Positions 45,694-53,139 are shown, counted from the first letter of the stretch. The stretch is 61,983 bases of DNA from a virus (IMGVR_UViG_3300045004_000088:192001-253983), one strand, 5' to 3'. Notes: a model not told the origin generated them from the letters alone. Program-made: numbers and translations.

Positions 45694-47778
45694 ATGCCGC
45701 CGCTGATCAAAGTCGGGGACCAGCCGACGCTGGTTCCCACTTCCAAGTACCCATACGCCACGTTCCCGTTCGCGAACTTCAACCCGGTCCAATCCGCCGT
45801 CTTCGAGTTTTACGACAAGGACTGCAACGCGGTCATCGCCGCCGCGACCAGTGCCGGCAAGACGGTCGTCGGCGAGATGTTCGCGAACCACGAAATCCAA
45901 GTCCGCAAAGGTACGTTCATGTACCTTTGCCCGCTCCGCGCACTCGCCCAAGAGAAGATCGATGACTGGACCGATCCGAGCCACCCGTTCAGCAAGAAGA
46001 AAGTCTCGATCTGCACCGGCGACTACCGCCTGACCCCCGAACGGAAGAAGGAACTGGCGGAAGCCGATGTCATCATCATGACATCCGAGATGCTCAACCA
46101 CCGCTGCCGCAACTTCAACAGCGAGGGCAACGCCTTCCTGAAGAACATTGGCACCATCGTCATTGACGAGAGCCATCTGCTCACCGTTCCGGGTCGCGGC
46201 GACCACCTCGAAGTCGGCCTGATGAAGCTGACGAAGATGAACCCGAACTGCCGCATCATCATGCTCTCGGCGACCATGCCCAACGTGGACGAAATCGCCG
46301 AGTGGGTCAGTTACAGCCTCACCGGGCGGGAAACCTACGTTCTTGTTTCCAAGTACCGCCCCTGCCCGCTCACGACCCACTTCGAGAACTACGACGACAG
46401 CGGGGACTACTACGAGCAGAAGGAAGAGTCCAAGATCGCGCGGGCGATGGAGATCGTCAAATACTACCCCAACGACAAGTTCCTGATCTTCTGCCACACG
46501 AAACGAACCGGCGAAAACATGTCGGAAGAGTTGAAGAGTGCCGGCATCAAGAACGAGTTCCACAACGCGGACTTGGACAAGGAAAAGCGGATCTCGCTCG
46601 AAAAGCGGTTCAAGACCGACCCGGACCTGAAGGTCGTTGTCGCCACGTCCACGCTGGCGTGGGGCGTGAACCTGCCGAGCCGTCGCGTGATCGTCTTGGG
46701 CGTCCACCGTGGCATCCAAGAGGTGCCGACCTACGACATCTTCCAGATGATCGGTCGTGCCGGGCGTCCGGCTTACGACCCGGCCGGTGACGCCTACATC
46801 CTCGTTCCGCTTTCTCAAGGGGCCGCTTGGCGGGCCAAGCTCAAAGCACAGCAACGCATCGACAGTCAGCTTCTGGAGAACGTCGGCGGGGTTCACAAGA
46901 CGATGGCGTTCCACGTCGTGTCGGAGATCTTCCACGGCGGCATCACCAACATGGACGAGATGCGGAAGTGGTACGAGCGGACGCTCGCCCACTTCCAGAG
47001 CAACGAACTCGATGACGTGGTCGCGGACGGCGTGATCAAGTCGCTCAAGGACTGTTACGCCATCAACGTCGAAGACGACGAGTTCACCGTCTCGACCATC
47101 GGCAAGATCAGCAGCCTGTTCTACTTCAGCCCGTTCGACGTGAGCCACCTGAACAAGAACTTCGGCAAGATGTTCAAAAGCGGCCACGAAACCGACGACC
47201 TTCGTGTCGCGCTCGCTCTCGGTGACATCGACAGCAACCGCCTCGGCTTCATTAGTCGAGCCGAACGGGAAGAGATCAGTGCATTCGAGCGTCGTCTCTC
47301 GGCCATTCCCGACCTGTTCAAAGAGACAAAGGCGAAGGACGGCGAAGAGGGCAAAGAGAAGCAACGCACGCTCAAGGACGGGTGCGTCAAGGCCGCGTAC
47401 CTCTATTACAGCCTTTTGACCGGGAGTCCGACCAAGATGCTGGCCGGTGCTTTGCGGGGGCTGAAGTTCGACGCTCCCCGCGTACTTCAGGTCGTTCAGG
47501 CACTGGACGCTCTGGGTGGCAAGAAGTGGGGCAAGGGTGACTTCCTCAGCGGGCTGGAGAAACGTATCACCTACGGCGTGCCGCCGCATCTCGTCGGTCT
47601 GGTAGGGTTGCCGAACCTCGGAGCGGTTCGCGCGAACAATCTCTACAAGGCCGGCATCAAGACGATGGACGATCTCGCCGCCGCGAAGCCTGAAGACGTG
47701 GTCAAGATCACCAAGATGAGTCGCAAGATGGTTGACGAACTCATCGAAGGTGCCAGCGTCAAGTCGATGATGGAGTGA
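45694..47778 (+). CDS. Ski2/Hel308-like SF2 helicase
   Basis: Motifs AATSAGKT, DESH, SAT and QMIGRAGR; C-terminal HhH-like region. Confidence 0.85.
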   Translation: MPPLIKVGDQPTLVPTSKYPYATFPFANFNPVQSAVFEFYDKDCNAVIAAATSAGKTVVGEMFANHEIQVRKGTFMYLCPLRALAQEKIDDWTDPSHPFSKKKVSICTGDYRLTPERKKELAEADVIIMTSEMLNHRCRNFNSEGNAFLKNIGTIVIDESHLLTVPGRGDHLEVGLMKLTKMNPNCRIIMLSATMPNVDEIAEWVSYSLTGRETYVLVSKYRPCPLTTHFENYDDSGDYYEQKEESKIARAMEIVKYYPNDKFLIFCHTKRTGENMSEELKSAGIKNEFHNADLDKEKRISLEKRFKTDPDLKVVVATSTLAWGVNLPSRRVIVLGVHRGIQEVPTYDIFQMIGRAGRPAYDPAGDAYILVPLSQGAAWRAKLKAQQRIDSQLLENVGGVHKTMAFHVVSEIFHGGITNMDEMRKWYERTLAHFQSNELDDVVADGVIKSLKDCYAINVEDDEFTVSTIGKISSLFYFSPFDVSHLNKNFGKMFKSGHETDDLRVALALGDIDSNRLGFISRAEREEISAFERRLSAIPDLFKETKAKDGEEGKEKQRTLKDGCVKAAYLYYSLLTGSPTKMLAGALRGLKFDAPRVLQVVQALDALGGKKWGKGDFLSGLEKRITYGVPPHLVGLVGLPNLGAVRANNLYKAGIKTMDDLAAAKPEDVVKITKMSRKMVDELIEGASVKSMME

Positions 47779-49936
47779 CCCACGGCCAGCCCGCAAGTGT
47801 GATAACGTCCGACTGCGGGCAGCAGTGTGCGTCGTGTTCGCTCGGAAAGACCTCGCTGTTGAAGTTCCACTTCTCGGCGAGGTCTTTCCGCATGTAGGTG
47901 GCCTCGATTGTGTCGGGGGTCATAGTGTCCCCGATCCACCCGTAGCCGCCGCAGTTGTTCGGGTGCGCATGAACGAGCTTGAACCTGTTGTTGATTGTTT
48001 GCAGGTATCGAATTTTGTCGTTCATGTTCTTCTTGTTCATGATCCCGTGCAACTCGATCATGATCACCTCGAACCGCGACAGGATCTTCGGATCGGTAAT
48101 TCTCAGTGTCTCCCACTCTGAATTTTCGATGTCGATTTTCAACCACATCCGTTTGCCATTCGCCGTCTTCGAGTGATCCAGCATCGTCTGGATCGAGTGT
48201 CCATCGACACCGATCCCGATTGGGAAGAACTCCGCGCCGGCCGGGATTTCTTCGGGTATGGCCTTAGAGTCGAACATTTTGATTTTGGCCCGACTCAGTT
48301 TTGCGAACTCTTTCTCGAAGTCGGAGTTGTTCCCGATTCCGGCCGAGATCAGGTAATCGACGTTCTGGATGTCCAGATCAGGCACGACGTAGCCGCCGTC
48401 GTTCTTCGAGCCGATCCTCTTTTTTAGCACCGGGCATTCGTACACGACGAGTTCTTTCAGAAGTCTGTGGCCTCTGTTTTGTCCTTTACGCAGCATCGCT
48501 TGCATCCCGTGCGTGACCTGAACGGGAACTTCGGGGAGGATTTCGTTGACCGCACGTTTGACACCCGGACAGCGTCCCCAGTTGTAGTCGTCAAGGATGA
48601 CCACGCCGTTTTCTACCATCTTCGGCCAGACCCATAGAAGTGCGTCCCGCGTTGATTGGTAGGTGTCGAAATCCAAGTGCGCGAAGGAGAAGGTCAGGTT
48701 GTCGAGATCTTTTGCCGTGTCGGGGAACCGGCCCGGATGTATCGAGACTTTGCACCCTGCCAAGAATTCGGTGACTTCGCTGAGGTTGCTCGCGAATTCG
48801 CCCTGCTTGTGTCCGGCGGGTTCTTGGTCGTCTTCAGGAATGCCCATCTCGAACCCGTCGAACATGTAGAGCGTTTTATTCGGAGCCGCGTAGGAGATAA
48901 GTTTGGCTGTGCCGCCGCGATAACACCCGCATTCAACCATGTCCCCCGGCAAGTTAGCGGTAGCAATCACAGAGTCTTGAATTACTTTCAGTCGGCCGGG
49001 GTCAACGAGGCTGCGGTCAGCAGTAATTTCGGACGGCATTTCGGCTATGTCCAAGATTGCGCCGGCGGCATCGATTGCGGCCGTTTTGAGCATTGCCATG
49101 CACATGGGAATGTTGCTGTGGTATTGATCCACGACCGGCAATGCACATTTCCTGTCAGATTCGCCGCCCACGACGATGCTTTTCCAACACCCGTTGCTCT
49201 TGCAACACGGCAACAGCCCTTGTGTGCTGAGGCTGATTTGGGTCGGGTAGCCGATCCAACTGATCGGTTCCCTGCCGCCGATCATGCAGATGTACGGTTT
49301 GCTGAATCCGGCCATGAAGTGGCCCAACGCTGTTATGCCGCCGATTCCGAAAGTAGCTCCGTGGCACAGTCGTAGCAGTTCCCTGAGAGTTGTTTGGCCG
49401 ATGAGGTTGATCGTGTCGTGTAGGGGCGGGTGGTTGTCTTTGGCCGCGCCGACTTGTACGAACCTGATCCGGTCCTTGTAGGTGTCCACTACGGACTGGT
49501 ACAGTTCGGTGCCGGCCCATTTTGCGGGGTAATCGTCCTTGTACCCCGCGTTGATTATTGCGTATGGTCCGTATTCTCCTGTCTTCTCGTTGAAAACCGA
49601 GAAGGTCTTTTCGGCAGCAGACAGGTAGAAGTGCGGCCTCGAAACTTGGAGCCTGAGCGGTAGCCCCAGAATATCGCCTAGGTGGTCGCAAAAGGCCGAT
49701 CCGAAGTGAAACGGGATGTGTGACTCGTTAATGCGGTCGTACCGCATGTCGATGTATTCACACTCCGCAGCACTCATCGGAGTTACCCACGGGTTGTTCG
49801 CGAACAGTTCGTTGTGGTTGGTCTGCATGTTCGTTAAGAACTTGCCGGGGAACTGTCGGTGCAAGCTTTCCAGAGCCATCGTAACTATGGCTACGTCGCC
49901 CGGACACAGACCGTGATTCAACAACAACTTTCTCAT
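47759..49936 (-). CDS. three-domain fusion: GT9 heptosyltransferase-like glycosyltransferase, TylF-like SAM O-methyltransferase, and a C-terminal methyltransferase-like domain
   Basis: GT9 N-terminus GDVAIVTMALESLHRQFP and C-terminus GATFGIGGITALGHFMAGFSKPYICMIGG. TylF motifs DMVECGCYRGGTAKL and VILDDYNW. ATGA-coupled to the upstream Ser-rich gene. Confidence 0.65.
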   Translation of the reverse strand: MRKLLLNHGLCPGDVAIVTMALESLHRQFPGKFLTNMQTNHNELFANNPWVTPMSAAECEYIDMRYDRINESHIPFHFGSAFCDHLGDILGLPLRLQVSRPHFYLSAAEKTFSVFNEKTGEYGPYAIINAGYKDDYPAKWAGTELYQSVVDTYKDRIRFVQVGAAKDNHPPLHDTINLIGQTTLRELLRLCHGATFGIGGITALGHFMAGFSKPYICMIGGREPISWIGYPTQISLSTQGLLPCCKSNGCWKSIVVGGESDRKCALPVVDQYHSNIPMCMAMLKTAAIDAAGAILDIAEMPSEITADRSLVDPGRLKVIQDSVIATANLPGDMVECGCYRGGTAKLISYAAPNKTLYMFDGFEMGIPEDDQEPAGHKQGEFASNLSEVTEFLAGCKVSIHPGRFPDTAKDLDNLTFSFAHLDFDTYQSTRDALLWVWPKMVENGVVILDDYNWGRCPGVKRAVNEILPEVPVQVTHGMQAMLRKGQNRGHRLLKELVVYECPVLKKRIGSKNDGGYVVPDLDIQNVDYLISAGIGNNSDFEKEFAKLSRAKIKMFDSKAIPEEIPAGAEFFPIGIGVDGHSIQTMLDHSKTANGKRMWLKIDIENSEWETLRITDPKILSRFEVIMIELHGIMNKKNMNDKIRYLQTINNRFKLVHAHPNNCGGYGWIGDTMTPDTIEATYMRKDLAEKWNFNSEVFPSEHDAHCCPQSDVITLAGWPWVTPSST

Positions 49937-50601
49937 TTCTTGCACCCGCACGGCTTACTCAGCCGACCGATCATCCTTTTCTTCGGAGTGATTTTGCTTT
50001 GAAAACCTTGCATAGCTATGGCTTCTACGACGACACACGGGTTACACGGGACAATTGCTGTTTGGTTTTCTTCCGTACCGGAGAAGCCCGGTGGGTTGTT
50101 GCAGCAGCAACCTTCTGTACATGTGTTGTCGCGATTTTCCCAGAACCCTCCTAGCCATTCCCACACACACTCTCCAGTACAAGTGACAACACCGCTACTG
50201 CTGGTGGAGCTTGGACTCACGCTCGAAGACGGGCTGCTGCTTGGGCTGCTCGACGGACTCGAACTCGGACTGGAACTCGGACTCGAAGACGGGCTGCTGC
50301 TTGGGCTACTCGACGGACTCGAAGACGAGCTTGGGCTTTTTGAGCTTGACGCACTTGAACTGCTCGACGGACTCGAAGACGAGCTTGGGCTGCTTGAGCT
50401 TGACGCACTCGAACTGCTCGAAGGTGAAGAACTGCTCGAAGGTGAAGAACTGCTCGAACTCGAAGGTGAAGAGGACGAAGACGATGAAGAACTCGAACTC
50501 GAAGGTGAAGAGGACGAAGACGAGGACGAAGACGATGAAGACGACGATCCGCACGCCGCCAAAGCTTCTTCGTATGTTTTGTATGGACCAATGAGTGGCA
50601 T
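49933..50601 (-). CDS. Ser/Pro-rich repeat protein with C-terminal Cys-rich module
   Basis: About 140-residue poly-S/P tract, then CTGECVWEWLGGFWENRDNTCTEGCCC...; ATG with AAGGAAAAC RBS. Confidence 0.55.
   Translation of the reverse strand: MPLIGPYKTYEEALAACGSSSSSSSSSSSSSSPSSSSSSSSSSSSPSSSSSSSPSSSSSPSSSSSASSSSSPSSSSSPSSSSSASSSKSPSSSSSPSSSPSSSPSSSPSSSPSSSPSSSPSSSPSSSVSPSSTSSSGVVTCTGECVWEWLGGFWENRDNTCTEGCCCNNPPGFSGTEENQTAIVPCNPCVVVEAIAMQGFQSKITPKKRMIGRLSKPCGCKK
50200..50580. repeat. degenerate 15-36-bp tandem repeats encoding poly-Ser/Pro
   Basis: Repeated ctcgaagacgggctgctgcttgggct and gaactgctcgaaggtgaa units. Confidence 0.7.
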
Positions 50602-50867
50602 GTTTTCCTTTATGCGTTGTCTGTCTTGAAACACACGGTTGCGGCAACATCACCTTCAAACCGTCCCGGCGCGGGAGGGACCATACAGAAACATCCAACG
50701 GCCGGATTGAAACATGTGCTGCTGACATTTGACCAAGATCCGTCTCCCCAAACCCAGTTGCAAACGCCGGGGCATCCGCCACCACCACTACTCGAACTCG
50801 AAGAGGAAGAAGAACTGCTCGCACTTGAACTCGAAGAAGGACTACTCGAACTCGAAGGCGAACTACT

Positions 50868-51107
50868 CTAGCTACTTGACGAACTCGATCCACAGACGTA
50901 GGCGTTCTTCTCTGCGCAACTGTTGAAGTACACGACTGTGTTCGTTTCTTGGCAACAGTACCAGCCGACGCAGCAACAGTTACAGCACCGCGCCCAACAG
51001 GAATCCGCACCGCTCATAGCCATAGTGCTGTTCATTGCAGCTTTGGCTCGTGCGGCGCGTTGTACCCTTTTGCGTAGGAACTCGGTGGCAATGATCGTCT
51101 GTCGCAT
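50868..51107 (-). CDS. Cys-rich protein ending in a poly-Ser run at an in-frame TAG; the frame continues after the TAG (50612..50867) with Ser-rich and a second Cys-rich module
   Basis: MRQTIIATEF...CWARCCNCCCVGWYCCQ...VCGSSSSSS-TAG-SSSPSSSSS...CPGVCNWVWGDGSW...; RBS AAAAGG. Confidence 0.45.
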   Translation of the reverse strand: MRQTIIATEFLRKRVQRAARAKAAMNSTMAMSGADSCWARCCNCCCVGWYCCQETNTVVYFNSCAEKNAYVCGSSSSSS

Positions 51108-51385
51108 TATGCCTTTTCGCCGAAGAAATCTGCCGGGTACTCGATCCTGACGGTGCCGTTGCCCGAAGTCGGGTGGCCCTTGTCGTCTTCGACCCACCAG
51201 CGGACCTGTTTCACTTCGATTCCCAGTTGGTCCATGTGACACTTGTCGCCGGGGAACACCGGCATGTGGTACTCTTTGCCTTGAATCAGGCAGGCAACTT
51301 TGCACTGCCCCTTCTTCCGGTCGTAGAGCATGCAGTTGTTGCAGATCTTTTCGATCACCTTCAGTTCCTTCTTCTTGTCTTCCAT
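51107..51385 (-). CDS. zinc-ribbon protein (92 aa)
   Basis: CNNC...C..C; RBS AAAGGG. Confidence 0.5.
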   Translation of the reverse strand: MEDKKKELKVIEKICNNCMLYDRKKGQCKVACLIQGKEYHMPVFPGDKCHMDQLGIEVKQVRWWVEDDKGHPTSGNGTVRIEYPADFFGEKA

Positions 51386-52075: not shown

Positions 52076-52164
52076 GAGTTACCCGCTAAGGGGGAGTGTG
52101 AGCGAACACGTTATTCGCAAGGGCGACCAACACTTTGTTGAGAAGGGTTGGGGGGAGGATGGGT

Positions 52165-53139
52165 ATGCCAACTACTGATCCTCAAAAACGCCGATCATAC
52201 GAGAAAAAGTACGAACAGTCGCCCAAAGCCAAAGCGACTCGGAAAAAGTACAAAGCCACCGTCGAAGGAGTGGCGACAAGACGCAAAACGTATTTGAAGG
52301 CTTACCATAAGGCCAAGAAAGAAACAGACTATTACGTTTGCGGAGCCGGTCGCCTTAGTTCTCTGAGAACTTCTGCAAAAGAACGCGGCTTGGAATTCAG
52401 TCTTACGGTCGAGGAGCTTAGGAATTGGTGGCAGTCCTCGGAAGATGTCTGCGAATACTGTCGTATGACAGTAGATGATTTTCGTAAGTTCAGAGATTAC
52501 GTTCGGAGCTACGAAGGAAATGATTGGGATATTGTCTCCTTCAAAAGCTTGGTCGATAACAGAACTTGCGTTGATCAGTTGACTATCGACCGCATCGATA
52601 GTGGTTCTGGCTATTGTTTGGGGAATTTGGCAAAGTGCTGTTGGTTTTGCAACCTTGTGAAGCACCGTTTTTTGACGGCCAAGCACATGGCCCAAATCGC
52701 TCCTGACATTATTGCCAAACTCAAGTCGGCGATAGATAGGACTGAACAGAAAGTTACTTCTGATTCCGCTTGGAGTGGGCGACTGGGTTATTTCCAGCAG
52801 ACTTTTGTCAAGAAAGGTTGGGGTTCGGAGCGATGGCTTTGGAACAACGATCTGTACTGCGGCAAGTACCTCTGGTTCGAGAAGGACAAGTGTTGCAGTT
52901 GGCACTACCACGCGATCAAAGACGAAGTCCTGCTTCTGGATTCGGGATCGATCAAGGTCACATATTCCGAGCAGGACGACATCGGTTTGGCGAAGGAAGT
53001 CATTCTCAAGCCGGGCGATGCGTTTCACGTCCCGGTCGGCCTTAGACACAGGATGTTTGCCCTGGAAGACAGCGGCATCTACGAGTTTTCGACGCACCAC
53101 GAGGACTCAGATTCGATCCGCATCCAACGGGGAAATTGA
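52165..53139 (+). CDS. HNH endonuclease domain fused to a cupin domain
   Basis: N-terminus CEYCRM...IDRIDSGSGYCLGNLAKCCWFCNLVKH; C-terminus WHYH...KPGDAFHVPVGLRHRM; ATG after GGGGGGAGG. Confidence 0.55.
   Translation: MPTTDPQKRRSYEKKYEQSPKAKATRKKYKATVEGVATRRKTYLKAYHKAKKETDYYVCGAGRLSSLRTSAKERGLEFSLTVEELRNWWQSSEDVCEYCRMTVDDFRKFRDYVRSYEGNDWDIVSFKSLVDNRTCVDQLTIDRIDSGSGYCLGNLAKCCWFCNLVKHRFLTAKHMAQIAPDIIAKLKSAIDRTEQKVTSDSAWSGRLGYFQQTFVKKGWGSERWLWNNDLYCGKYLWFEKDKCCSWHYHAIKDEVLLLDSGSIKVTYSEQDDIGLAKEVILKPGDAFHVPVGLRHRMFALEDSGIYEFSTHHEDSDSIRIQRGN

Follow-up and report, generated by a model that had tools for sequence, protein, structure and literature searches.

The stretch of viral DNA analysed here, called the window throughout (61,983 nucleotides, IMGVR_UViG_3300045004_000088:192001-253983), belongs to a huge uncultivated phage (~476 kb) and carries a minus-strand operon of four genes, in which two proteins with dense poly-Ser tracts and a Cys/Trp-rich module, W1 and W2, are encoded directly upstream of an enzyme predicted to combine a glycosyltransferase (GT) with two methyltransferases. 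The enzyme gene (47759..49936, minus strand; ATG at 49936, TGA at 47761-47759) encodes 725 aa, within an open reading frame (ORF) spanning 47759-49951 that would give 730 aa from a GTG start. The identical 725-aa protein occurs on contigs of up to 475,914 bp, and the minus-strand gene described in the initial annotation is confirmed. That annotation had also reported an overlap between this gene and a gene for a poly-Ser/Pro protein with a Cys-rich module, and both the overlap and the protein are real: the W2 stop codon TGA and the ATG of the enzyme gene overlap as ATGA, and W2 (222 aa; 49933..50601 on the minus strand including the stop codon, coding 50601-49936, as read from the sequence and its orthologue in a related locus) consists of the N-terminus MPLIGPYKTYEEALAACG, a poly-Ser/Pro tract of ~120 aa at about 50194-50547, the Cys/Trp module at 50044-50181 (CTGECVWEWLGGFWENRDNTCTEGCCC..PP) and a basic tail with a CGCKK end. 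The whole of W2 contains 100 Ser and 24 Pro residues, and its start is preceded, at a distance of 8 nt, by the Shine-Dalgarno sequence AGGA.

W1, a paralogue of W2, comprises 165 codons (50610..51107, minus strand; ATG at 51107, TAA at 50612-50610), with the TAA located 8 nt (containing the AGGA) ahead of the W2 ATG. Its order is a Cys-rich N-terminus (CWARCCNCCCVGWYCC), poly-Ser, an in-frame TAG, further poly-Ser and then an intact Cys/Trp module at 50631-50774, minus strand (CPGVCNWVWGDGSWSNVSSTC...GCFC..PP..GRFEGD....C). The earlier description of this gene as a small protein with its own Cys-rich block and a stop after SSSSSS was thus correct as far as the stop, but the gene does not simply end there. 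Upstream of W1 and coupled to it by a TAATG overlap, in which the stop codon shares one base with the W1 ATG, the sequence encodes a 92-aa Cys-containing protein (CNNC...C...C; 51107..51385, minus strand), which is probably the first gene of the operon and had no matches in Pfam, PHROG or NCBIfam. In both W1 and W2 the part before the Ser tract ends in (A/V)CG, directly preceding the tract, and neither protein has a hydrophobic N-terminal segment. A lipoprotein reading of the lipobox-like LAAC followed by G was rejected, as there is no hydrophobic signal segment before it and because a similar LACCGG in two related loci (L007 and L009) lies ~110 residues inside a conserved protein. No other ORF in the 62-kb window has poly-Ser as dense as that of W1 and W2.

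Repetitive frames of this kind can be the antisense of a genuine gene, a possibility that the initial annotation had raised against its own proposal and that was not borne out. The 100 Ser codons of W2 are drawn from all six types (TCG 25, AGC 25, AGT 20, TCT 13, TCA 11 and TCC 6); since the TCN and AGY families are not interconvertible by single synonymous steps, it is the amino acid that is conserved and not a DNA repeat. In locus L001, where the enzyme is 67% identical, a W2 orthologue retains the N-terminus MPLIGPYNTYAEALAACG, the module, the ...CGCKKQ end and the ATGA overlap; its poly-Ser tract differs in length from that of W2, with the non-repeat ends conserved, and the antisense frames are fragmented. 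Homologues of the Cys/Trp module are also called as proteins in the Ser frame elsewhere. The Ser frame is therefore the coding frame, and the antisense alternative was rejected on codon use, conservation in L001, the broken antisense frames and the module homologues. The Joint Genome Institute (JGI) gene calls in this region are antisense ORFs rich in Leu, Glu and Asp (window 50018-50629 and 50707-50871, both plus strand; also 9066-9754 of L004), and it is because the caller chose these ORFs that a word-indexed protein search with the module came back empty. It is likely that poly-Ser genes are systematically missing from protein databases.

The TAG of W1 (50870-50868, minus strand) lies inside the poly-Ser tract, within a palindromic CTAG, and is one substitution away from the Ser codon TCG. 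After it the same frame stays open for 85 codons, running through 27 Ser-rich codons and the second intact module up to the TAA. Because it retains an intact conserved module and a canonical gene junction, the region past the TAG was coding until recently, if it is not coding still. The TAG may have arisen by a recent nonsense mutation or by an error in the assembly of the repeat, it may be polymorphic in the population, or it may be a site of low-level read-through. Contigs L004 and L005 match the window at 100% identity, with L005 ending short of the site; the window is absent from IMG/VR, and look-ups of the exact product found no independent assembly across the TAG. Genome-wide recoding or suppression of TAG was rejected because gene density is normal under the standard code; TAG terminates 12 of the 81 crude ORFs in the window, the one pair of same-frame ORFs examined is separated by a TAG plus a TGA, and there is no suppressor tRNA among the seven tRNAs of the window. 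These predicted tRNAs, some of which may overlap ORFs, are at 1-83, 1311-1400, 2407-2479, 4098-4183, 4884-4967, 6059-6134 and 6398-6480 and comprise Ser(GCU), Ser(UGA), Phe and four Leu species. As a separate observation, the two tRNA-Ser species jointly read five of the six codons used in the poly-Ser tracts (AGC, AGT, TCA, TCG and possibly TCT).

All three domains that the initial annotation had assigned to the enzyme were recovered. The middle one (48545..48994, minus strand) is predicted from Pfam and the PDB to be a metal-dependent sugar O-methyltransferase of the TylF/NovP/MycF type, with the motifs GDMVECGCYRGG, HLDFDTYQST and ILDDYNW: it matches PF05711 with 59.9 bits (cut-off 23; E 3e-16) over residues 320-469 and, in the PDB, NovP (2wk1, 7.8e-12) and MycF (1.7e-7). 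In the alignment to NovP 2wk1 the S-adenosylmethionine (SAM) motif GDxVExGxxRGG and the metal-binding Asp motifs DxDxYxST and DDY are conserved. TylF, NovP and MycF are stand-alone enzymes that methylate antibiotic deoxysugars, whereas the window domain is part of a fusion, with the GT on one side and the FkbM domain on the other, and would presumably act on a protein-linked sugar. The third domain (48008..48352, minus strand) belongs by its Pfam match to the FkbM family (Methyltransf_21, PF05050 at residues 534-648; E 2.4e-5, a marginal 24.9 bits against a cut-off of 22.7); PF05050 is also present in the orthologue P0002 and in the distant match P0015, and the domain had no sequence match in the PDB.

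The N-terminal domain (~residues 1-300; 49037..49936, minus strand) was harder to assign. A single-sequence phmmer search of the PDB with this domain gave no match, and its placement as a GT9-like GT-B domain comes from family alignments, PDB profile hits, an AlphaFold2 (AF2) model and Foldseek rather than from the Pfam score of the window enzyme itself. The GT family as defined here is formed by the 14 homologues found for the 725-aa enzyme; PF01075 was matched by 11 of 12 family members (best E 9.8e-9), and several homologues carry precomputed PF01075 assignments. A profile built on the family matched WaaC (4.5e-4) and WaaF (5e-3) in the PDB. The AF2 model of the domain, built on the family alignment, has a pLDDT (predicted local distance difference test) of 82.6 and a pTM (predicted template modelling score) of 0.83, and its top 30 Foldseek matches in the PDB are all GT9 structures, including WaaF, TibC and WaaC (3tov, 7.5e-12; 1psw; 4rap/4rb4; 2gt1/2h1f/6dfe). 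The family profile and the modelled fold thus agree in identifying a distant GT9 glycosyltransferase.

In the GT9 enzyme WaaC, D13 in an N-terminal GD motif is the catalytic Asp and K192 is the phosphate-binding Lys. The family studied here has an invariant PGD at the end of strand 1, a GGREP motif and an invariant Lys that is aligned to K192 by the hidden Markov model (HMM) alignment; the equivalence of the PGD to D13 is positional only, the HMM alignment stopping short of the WaaC N-lobe. Four further invariant residues, all Cys (C-x5-C-x13-C-x14-C), are inserted late in the C-lobe, after GGREP. WaaC and WaaF (CAZy GT9, PF01075) are similar to the window GT in giving the best profile matches, in fold, in the K192-equivalent Lys and, to judge by position, in the N-terminal GD motif. 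They differ in that the phage family lies near capsid, tail and Ser-rich genes and not in lipopolysaccharide (LPS) core operons, and in that the window GT has the four-Cys insertion and the methyltransferase fusions and falls below the PF01075 threshold.

The Cys/Trp module is a repeat of ~45 aa with six Cys residues: C-x-G-x-C-x-[WY]-x-W-x-G-x2-W-x(5-7)-C-x(2-5)-C-x-C-x2-P-x(3-5)-G-x-[FY]-x-G-[DEQ]-x(4-6)-C. It has no Pfam model, and its homologues were absent from the word-indexed protein search and from pattern scans of viral and metagenome contigs. Only an exhaustive HMMER search with the two window modules against 1.84 billion representatives (E <=1e-3) succeeded, finding 14 module-bearing proteins; a search of other phages for this module was among the checks proposed at the outset, as was prediction of its structure. 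In the AlphaFold model, built from two sequences, the first ~50 residues have block-mean pLDDT values of 74-93 and form a beta-hairpin plus a third strand; the model had no match in the PDB and, in BFVD, only one marginal match (E 0.025), to an uncharacterised phage protein.

Module-bearing proteins are up to 1042 aa long and contain one to seven copies, with linkers that are poly-Ser in P0017 and P0022 and poly-Thr in P0018, P0019, P0024 and P0026. GT genes recur beside them. P0022, with four modules, has a GT9-like gene two genes downstream on the same strand (E 8e-83); P0024, which has six modules by regular expression (seven matched stretches by HMMER) and lies in a prophage region, is immediately followed by a GT2-Methyltransf_24 fusion; P0018 has a GT2 gene two genes downstream. 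The closest full-length relative of W1 and W2, P0017, is encoded at the tail-fibre position of a prophage; its module is 49% identical to that of W1 and 33% to that of W2, it shares a ...LGRVQKPCGCK tail with the window proteins, and the ...KPCGCKK motif is found in W2, L001 and P0017. An architecture that looks like a glycosylation acceptor is thus accompanied by GT and methyltransferase genes, and these belong to more than one family. A side observation, made at L161:8001-12896 and L160:8001-13231, is that poly-Thr-linked modules stand with GT2 genes, one of them fused to Methyltransf_24, and poly-Ser-linked modules with GT9-like genes; this pairing may reflect acceptor specificity, in a small sample of two against three to four loci.

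In secreted glycoside hydrolases, carbohydrate-binding modules such as CBM1 are carried on O-glycosylated Ser/Thr linkers. By analogy of architecture, the window module resembles these in being small, disulfide-rich, aromatic-rich and placed on poly-Ser or poly-Thr linkers; it differs in matching nothing in the PDB or Pfam and only the one marginal BFVD entry. It is probably a binding (adhesion) module.

The same association is seen when one starts from the enzyme. IMG/VR was scanned with the GT family alignment, yielding 51 loci, of which 36 were non-redundant, and these were searched for ORFs on the same strand as the GT gene, no more than 5 kb from it, in which Ser makes up 80% or more of a 25-aa stretch. 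The threshold was set at 80% because weaker Ser-rich antisense ORFs (60-72% Ser) occur opposite other genes in control loci. Dense poly-Ser was found near the GT gene in 10 of the 36 loci, with two more loci at 68-76% Ser and one carrying a poly-Thr ORF, compared with none, on either strand, in 70 control loci, which cover 696 kb surrounding capsid genes of distant relationship. A Ser-rich gene overlaps the start of the GT gene in three loci, namely the window (ATGA), L001 (ATGA) and L165, where it encodes a 310-aa SQ-repeat protein. Together with the module search, which lands beside GT genes, this comparison supports the earlier suggestion of a self-contained GT and O-methyltransferase cassette acting on neighbouring Ser-rich proteins.

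The partners of these GT genes differ from locus to locus. The partner in L054 is a tail protein (phrog_1101), that in L014 is a 334-aa protein with 25 Ser at its end, and that in L001, at the position of W1 in the window, is a PKD-domain protein with a poly-Ser end. The partners in L007 (1705-2694) and L009 (3771-4694) have a conserved N-terminal domain, LACCGG, poly-Ser/Pro and an unrelated Cys-rich C-terminal domain; LACCGG or (A/V)CG just before the Ser tract might act as a signal by which the transferase recognises the tract or starts on it. In the L013 clade (40-kb-class phages) the gene for the major head protein (phrog_334) is followed by two small genes, the gene for a poly-Ser-tailed protein, a 100-aa gene and a methyltransferase-GT9 fusion; beyond these lie three to four more methyltransferase genes and genes for LicD, a radical-SAM/SPASM protein and a sugar epimerase/dehydratase. 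The poly-Ser protein of this clade consists of a conserved N-terminal domain of ~170 aa and a pure Ser tail of 100-200 residues. When the clade was re-sampled through its capsid gene, the poly-Ser protein and the GT were found together in 13 contigs, and where the major capsid protein was at least 52% identical to the query the GT was present in all contigs that extended as far as its position; where the capsid was more distant both features were missing, except that L090 has a GT-family gene and no dense poly-Ser. The GT family is thus recurrently linked to poly-Ser proteins in phage structural modules, and the relatives (a capsid-side protein, phrog_1101, the PKD protein and the tail-fibre position of P0017) support the idea, already voiced in the initial annotation, that the target could be a virion fibre or decoration protein.

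Two further arrangements were noted among these relatives. The glycan cassette of L013 (5978-10648), with its LicD (a phosphocholine/phosphotransfer family), radical SAM/SPASM and 4,6-dehydratase-like enzymes, points to a glycan of greater complexity in these phages, possibly one with phospho-substituents. In a prophage within a 3.8-Mb contig, P0004 (L002:8001-10379, 792 aa) is a fusion of a tail-module segment with GT9-like and TylF domains, encoded directly after Phage_tail_T and a putative tape-measure gene. Its N-terminal segment is homologous to a protein encoded just upstream of P0017 in L156 (35% identity, E 1e-30), and the P0004 and P0017 prophages have a similar downstream layout (23S_rRNA_IVP and serine-recombinase genes) with no DNA similarity.

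Some members of the family lie close to genes that could supply a heptose donor. In L165 a tape-measure gene is followed by two genes, the SQ-repeat protein, the GT9-like gene, a 1218-aa protein, a 155-aa gene, a gene resembling the bifunctional heptose-7-phosphate kinase/adenylyltransferase HldE and one resembling ADP-glyceromanno-heptose-6-epimerase; by sequence, the last two assignments would fit GT9 chemistry. Genes similar to HldE domain II are also carried by L007 and L008. The 1218-aa protein of L165 (9299-12955), itself in a phage tail module, apparently has two GT9-like domains, with GD motifs near both ends, as well as FkbM and a further methyltransferase-like region.

Among characterised systems, the closest in logic are probably the bacterial autotransporter heptosyltransferases (BAHT). 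TibC, a GT9-like member of this group, O-heptosylates Ser residues of its protein substrate with ADP-heptose; the N-terminal beta-barrel of BAHT enzymes is needed for activity, and the C-lobe of TibC contains a four-Cys iron finger (C339, C342, C358 and C370) (PMC4358343). The window enzyme shares with TibC and Aah a GT9-like GT-B catalytic domain, TibC being among its top Foldseek matches (E about 2e-9). The TibC substrate is encoded next door and the window enzyme adjoins Ser-rich genes; TibC uses ADP-heptose and relatives of the window enzyme lie beside HldE-like and epimerase-like genes. The four Cys inserted late in the C-lobe of the window family may correspond in position to the iron finger, the part of the profile with the first two Cys aligning to TibC 273-347, though only at E 0.25. 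On the other hand, the window enzyme is phage-encoded and fused to two methyltransferases, and the acceptor of TibC is a folded beta-helix passenger whereas the candidate acceptor here is low-complexity poly-Ser. In the AF2 model a Rossmann strand occupies residues 2-8 with nothing before it, so that there is no N-terminal beta-barrel, and sequence similarity to TibC is insignificant (E 0.25-0.35). Strict membership in BAHT was rejected because of these last two differences, and the GT domain represents a separate GT9-like clade.

Serine-rich repeat proteins (SRRP) of Gram-positive bacteria provide a second comparison, and the one drawn by the initial annotation. In those systems a dedicated GT pair, GtfA-GtfB, whose genes adjoin that of the substrate, adds O-glycans to long Ser-rich tracts in the cytoplasm, giving an adhesin on a glycosylated stalk. 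The resemblance holds as a functional analogy, but membership in SRRP/GtfA-B was rejected since the defining parts are absent: no SecA2/SecY2, GtfA/GtfB, signal peptide or LPXTG was found in the operon or its flanks, the GtfA/B enzymes are of the GT4 type where the present one is GT9-like, and the window system is phage-encoded and includes methyltransferases. The autotransporter heptosyltransferases are the closer precedent.

For phages themselves, glycosylation of mycobacteriophage virions has reportedly been described by Freeman et al. in 2023. In mycobacteriophages Che8 and Corndog, according to the work cited in PMC12619734 and PMC13445384, phage GTs O-glycosylate structural proteins inside the host, with glycans at the C-termini of capsid and tail-tube subunits. 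Such C-terminal glycans match the C-terminal poly-Ser tails of the L013 clade and L014. The differences are that the hosts are not the same, that the acceptors proposed here are long homopolymeric Ser tracts, and that the window GT and the L013 fusion are unmatched in GenBank phages including mycobacteriophages.

We regard it as moderately probable that the operon directs cytoplasmic O-glycosylation of the poly-Ser tract of W2, and possibly of W1, followed by O-methylation of the sugar. Under this proposal the GT9-like domain would transfer, in the host cytoplasm, a sugar from a nucleotide sugar to the Ser hydroxyls of the W2 tract, and of W1 if it is made at full length; the sugar would most probably be heptose, with ADP-heptose as the donor. 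O-methylation of this sugar by the TylF-type and FkbM-type domains would follow and yield a mucin-like stalk, stiff and resistant to proteases, bearing the six-Cys, Trp-rich beta module, which would probably be exposed on the virion or released at lysis. The identity of the acceptor (the poly-Ser tract) and of the sugar (heptose), the placing of the methyl groups on this sugar and the association of the products with the virion in the window phage are inferred. By analogy with the relatives, the products are likely to be surface-exposed phage components that serve in adhesion or shielding.

Several observations weigh against this proposal. The window operon has genes of replication and nucleotide metabolism as its neighbours (DnaB-like, Dda-like and Hel308-like helicases, a DNA polymerase, gp32, a RecA-like protein, ThyX and a deoxynucleoside monophosphate (dNMP) kinase) and is not in an obvious structural module, and W1 and W2 have no recognisable virion domain; for the window phage, this absence of a structural module around the operon is the main weakness of regarding the products as virion proteins. 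W1 may be a pseudogene owing to its in-frame TAG. The window enzyme's own PF01075 score (E 0.007, 16.2 bits) is below the 22-bit cut-off. On the donor side, the HldE-like (2e-46) and epimerase-like (3e-36) matches in L165, though the best NCBIfam assignments, are well under the equivalog cut-offs, and no ADP-heptose pathway genes were found in the window, so that the donor would have to come from the remaining ~410 kb of the phage or from the host. In 24 of the 36 GT loci there is no dense poly-Ser within 5 kb, and therefore either poly-Ser is not the only acceptor of the family or acceptors are encoded elsewhere. The Fisher test comparing GT and control loci (p = 8e-6) ignores relatedness, the loci representing about six or seven independent lineages. 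The case as a whole, moreover, is built on sequence comparison and models.

The alternative that survives best, though we consider it unlikely, is that the enzyme targets something other than protein, such as the host LPS core or another envelope glycoconjugate, for example in superinfection exclusion or receptor masking, and that the poly-Ser proteins are neighbours with no connection to it, their Ser tracts serving as simple flexible linkers. The classical role of GT9 enzymes is that of LPS heptosyltransferases; WaaC and WaaF give the best sequence matches, and NCBIfam assigns family members to heptosyltransferases I, II and III. TylF-like enzymes methylate glycolipid sugars as well: when the full enzyme was compared with the GenBank phage records only its TylF-like region found a match, the sole one in that "phage" collection, and this was MtfB in a Mycobacterium avium record. 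The two thirds of GT loci with no dense poly-Ser nearby point the same way. Yet an enzyme acting on the host envelope would hardly be expected to show repeated same-strand adjacency to, and translational coupling with, Ser-rich genes, to sit within the capsid and tail modules of apparently lytic phages, or to be fused as a GT-TylF unit to a tail-module domain in a prophage; and the fact that module proteins with Ser/Thr linkers also draw GT2 genes fits a logic centred on the acceptor.

We give little credence to a role in DNA hypermodification, in which a modified base would be glycosylated and the sugar then methylated. The idea draws on the neighbourhood of the operon (ThyX, dNMP kinase, an amidoligase, a 2-oxoglutarate-Fe(II) oxygenase, helicases and gp32/UvsX) and on the existence of phage GT-B enzymes that glycosylate DNA, which are cited in PMC12619734. 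It is the poly-Ser genes, however, to which the enzyme gene is coupled by ATGA, the nucleotide genes being on the opposite strand or separated from it; relatives of the GT are found in structural modules beside poly-Ser proteins, and the structural matches of the GT include no DNA glycosyltransferase that is known.

Small Cys-rich genes directly upstream of a tailoring enzyme, with a conserved C-terminal ...KPCGCKK in W2, L001 and P0017, could also be seen as precursors of secreted peptides, either toxins or ribosomally synthesized and post-translationally modified peptides (RiPP) of a glycocin-like kind, the enzyme then tailoring the module by S- or O-glycosylation and methylation and the Ser tract acting as leader or spacer. 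This seems improbable, as the module occurs in up to seven copies in proteins of up to 1042 aa, one of them at a tail-fibre position, while in many partners of the GT family the tail is poly-Ser throughout and the module is absent, and the operon contains no protease, transporter or RiPP recognition element. Finally, that the Ser-rich ORFs are non-functional, being repeat DNA or decaying pseudogenes beside the only gene that matters, the enzyme, is suggested by the W1 TAG, the antisense JGI calls and the tandemly repetitive DNA, but is made very improbable by the six-codon Ser usage, the compact gene junctions, the retention of non-repeat ends and coupling in L001, and a module that is conserved in at least 14 database proteins and confidently folded (pLDDT 74-93 over residues 1-50).

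Returning to dedicated O-glycosylation of the poly-Ser proteins, such a system is known in kind; what is new is the phage GT9-like enzyme clade, the Cys/Trp domain and the host class. The GT domain, the L013 GT fusion, the N-terminal domain of the poly-Ser protein and the module had no tblastn match among 50,697 GenBank phage records, and full-text searches of the literature turned up no account of a phage system that pairs GT9 with poly-Ser; the initial annotation, too, had not recognised the architecture from phage systems already described. To our knowledge, glycosylation of phage-particle proteins has been shown experimentally only in a few mycobacteriophages. What the window and its relatives define is a clade of phage-specific GT9-like enzymes, found time and again in fusions or clusters with sugar O-methyltransferases and at some loci beside genes for ADP-heptose synthesis, together with a simple signature of probable acceptors, namely homopolymeric Ser tracts on capsid-side and tail-side proteins, and the new Cys/Trp module.

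If the proposal is true, protein O-heptosylation would extend beyond bacterial autotransporters. More broadly, and more tentatively, one may picture a widespread phage system of mucin-like "glyco-stalks", possible though short of probable at present, in which the phage GT9-like clade, as a relative of the bacterial autotransporter heptosyltransferases, would add O-linked heptose at high density to homopolymeric Ser (or Thr) tracts of proteins that decorate the capsid or form tail fibres; the sugars would be O-methylated in turn, and one lineage would display the Cys/Trp module on such stalks. Phages would in that case possess a protein-glycosylation toolkit on a par with that of bacterial adhesins, for adhesion or shielding. 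As a smaller addition to this picture, read-through of the W1 TAG would yield two isoforms. Such coats could affect phage adsorption, environmental stability, immune recognition and mucus adherence, and many "low-complexity" ORFs that are missed, or called on the wrong strand, may encode real virion glycoproteins.

As to the phage itself, the closest GenBank record is a 595-kb uncultured phage whose DnaB-like helicase is 34% identical to that of the window. The only IMG/VR relative found for the Dda-like helicase of the window is in L078 (IMGVR_UViG_3300013121_000017, 261,680 bp; 74% identity), which may be a relative of the window phage. Elsewhere in the window, a plus-strand gene at 52135-53139 encodes a 334-aa protein with an unusual fusion of an HNH/endonuclease VII-like N-terminal part to a C-terminal cupin (phrog_7851 "cysteine dioxygenase", E 1e-47).

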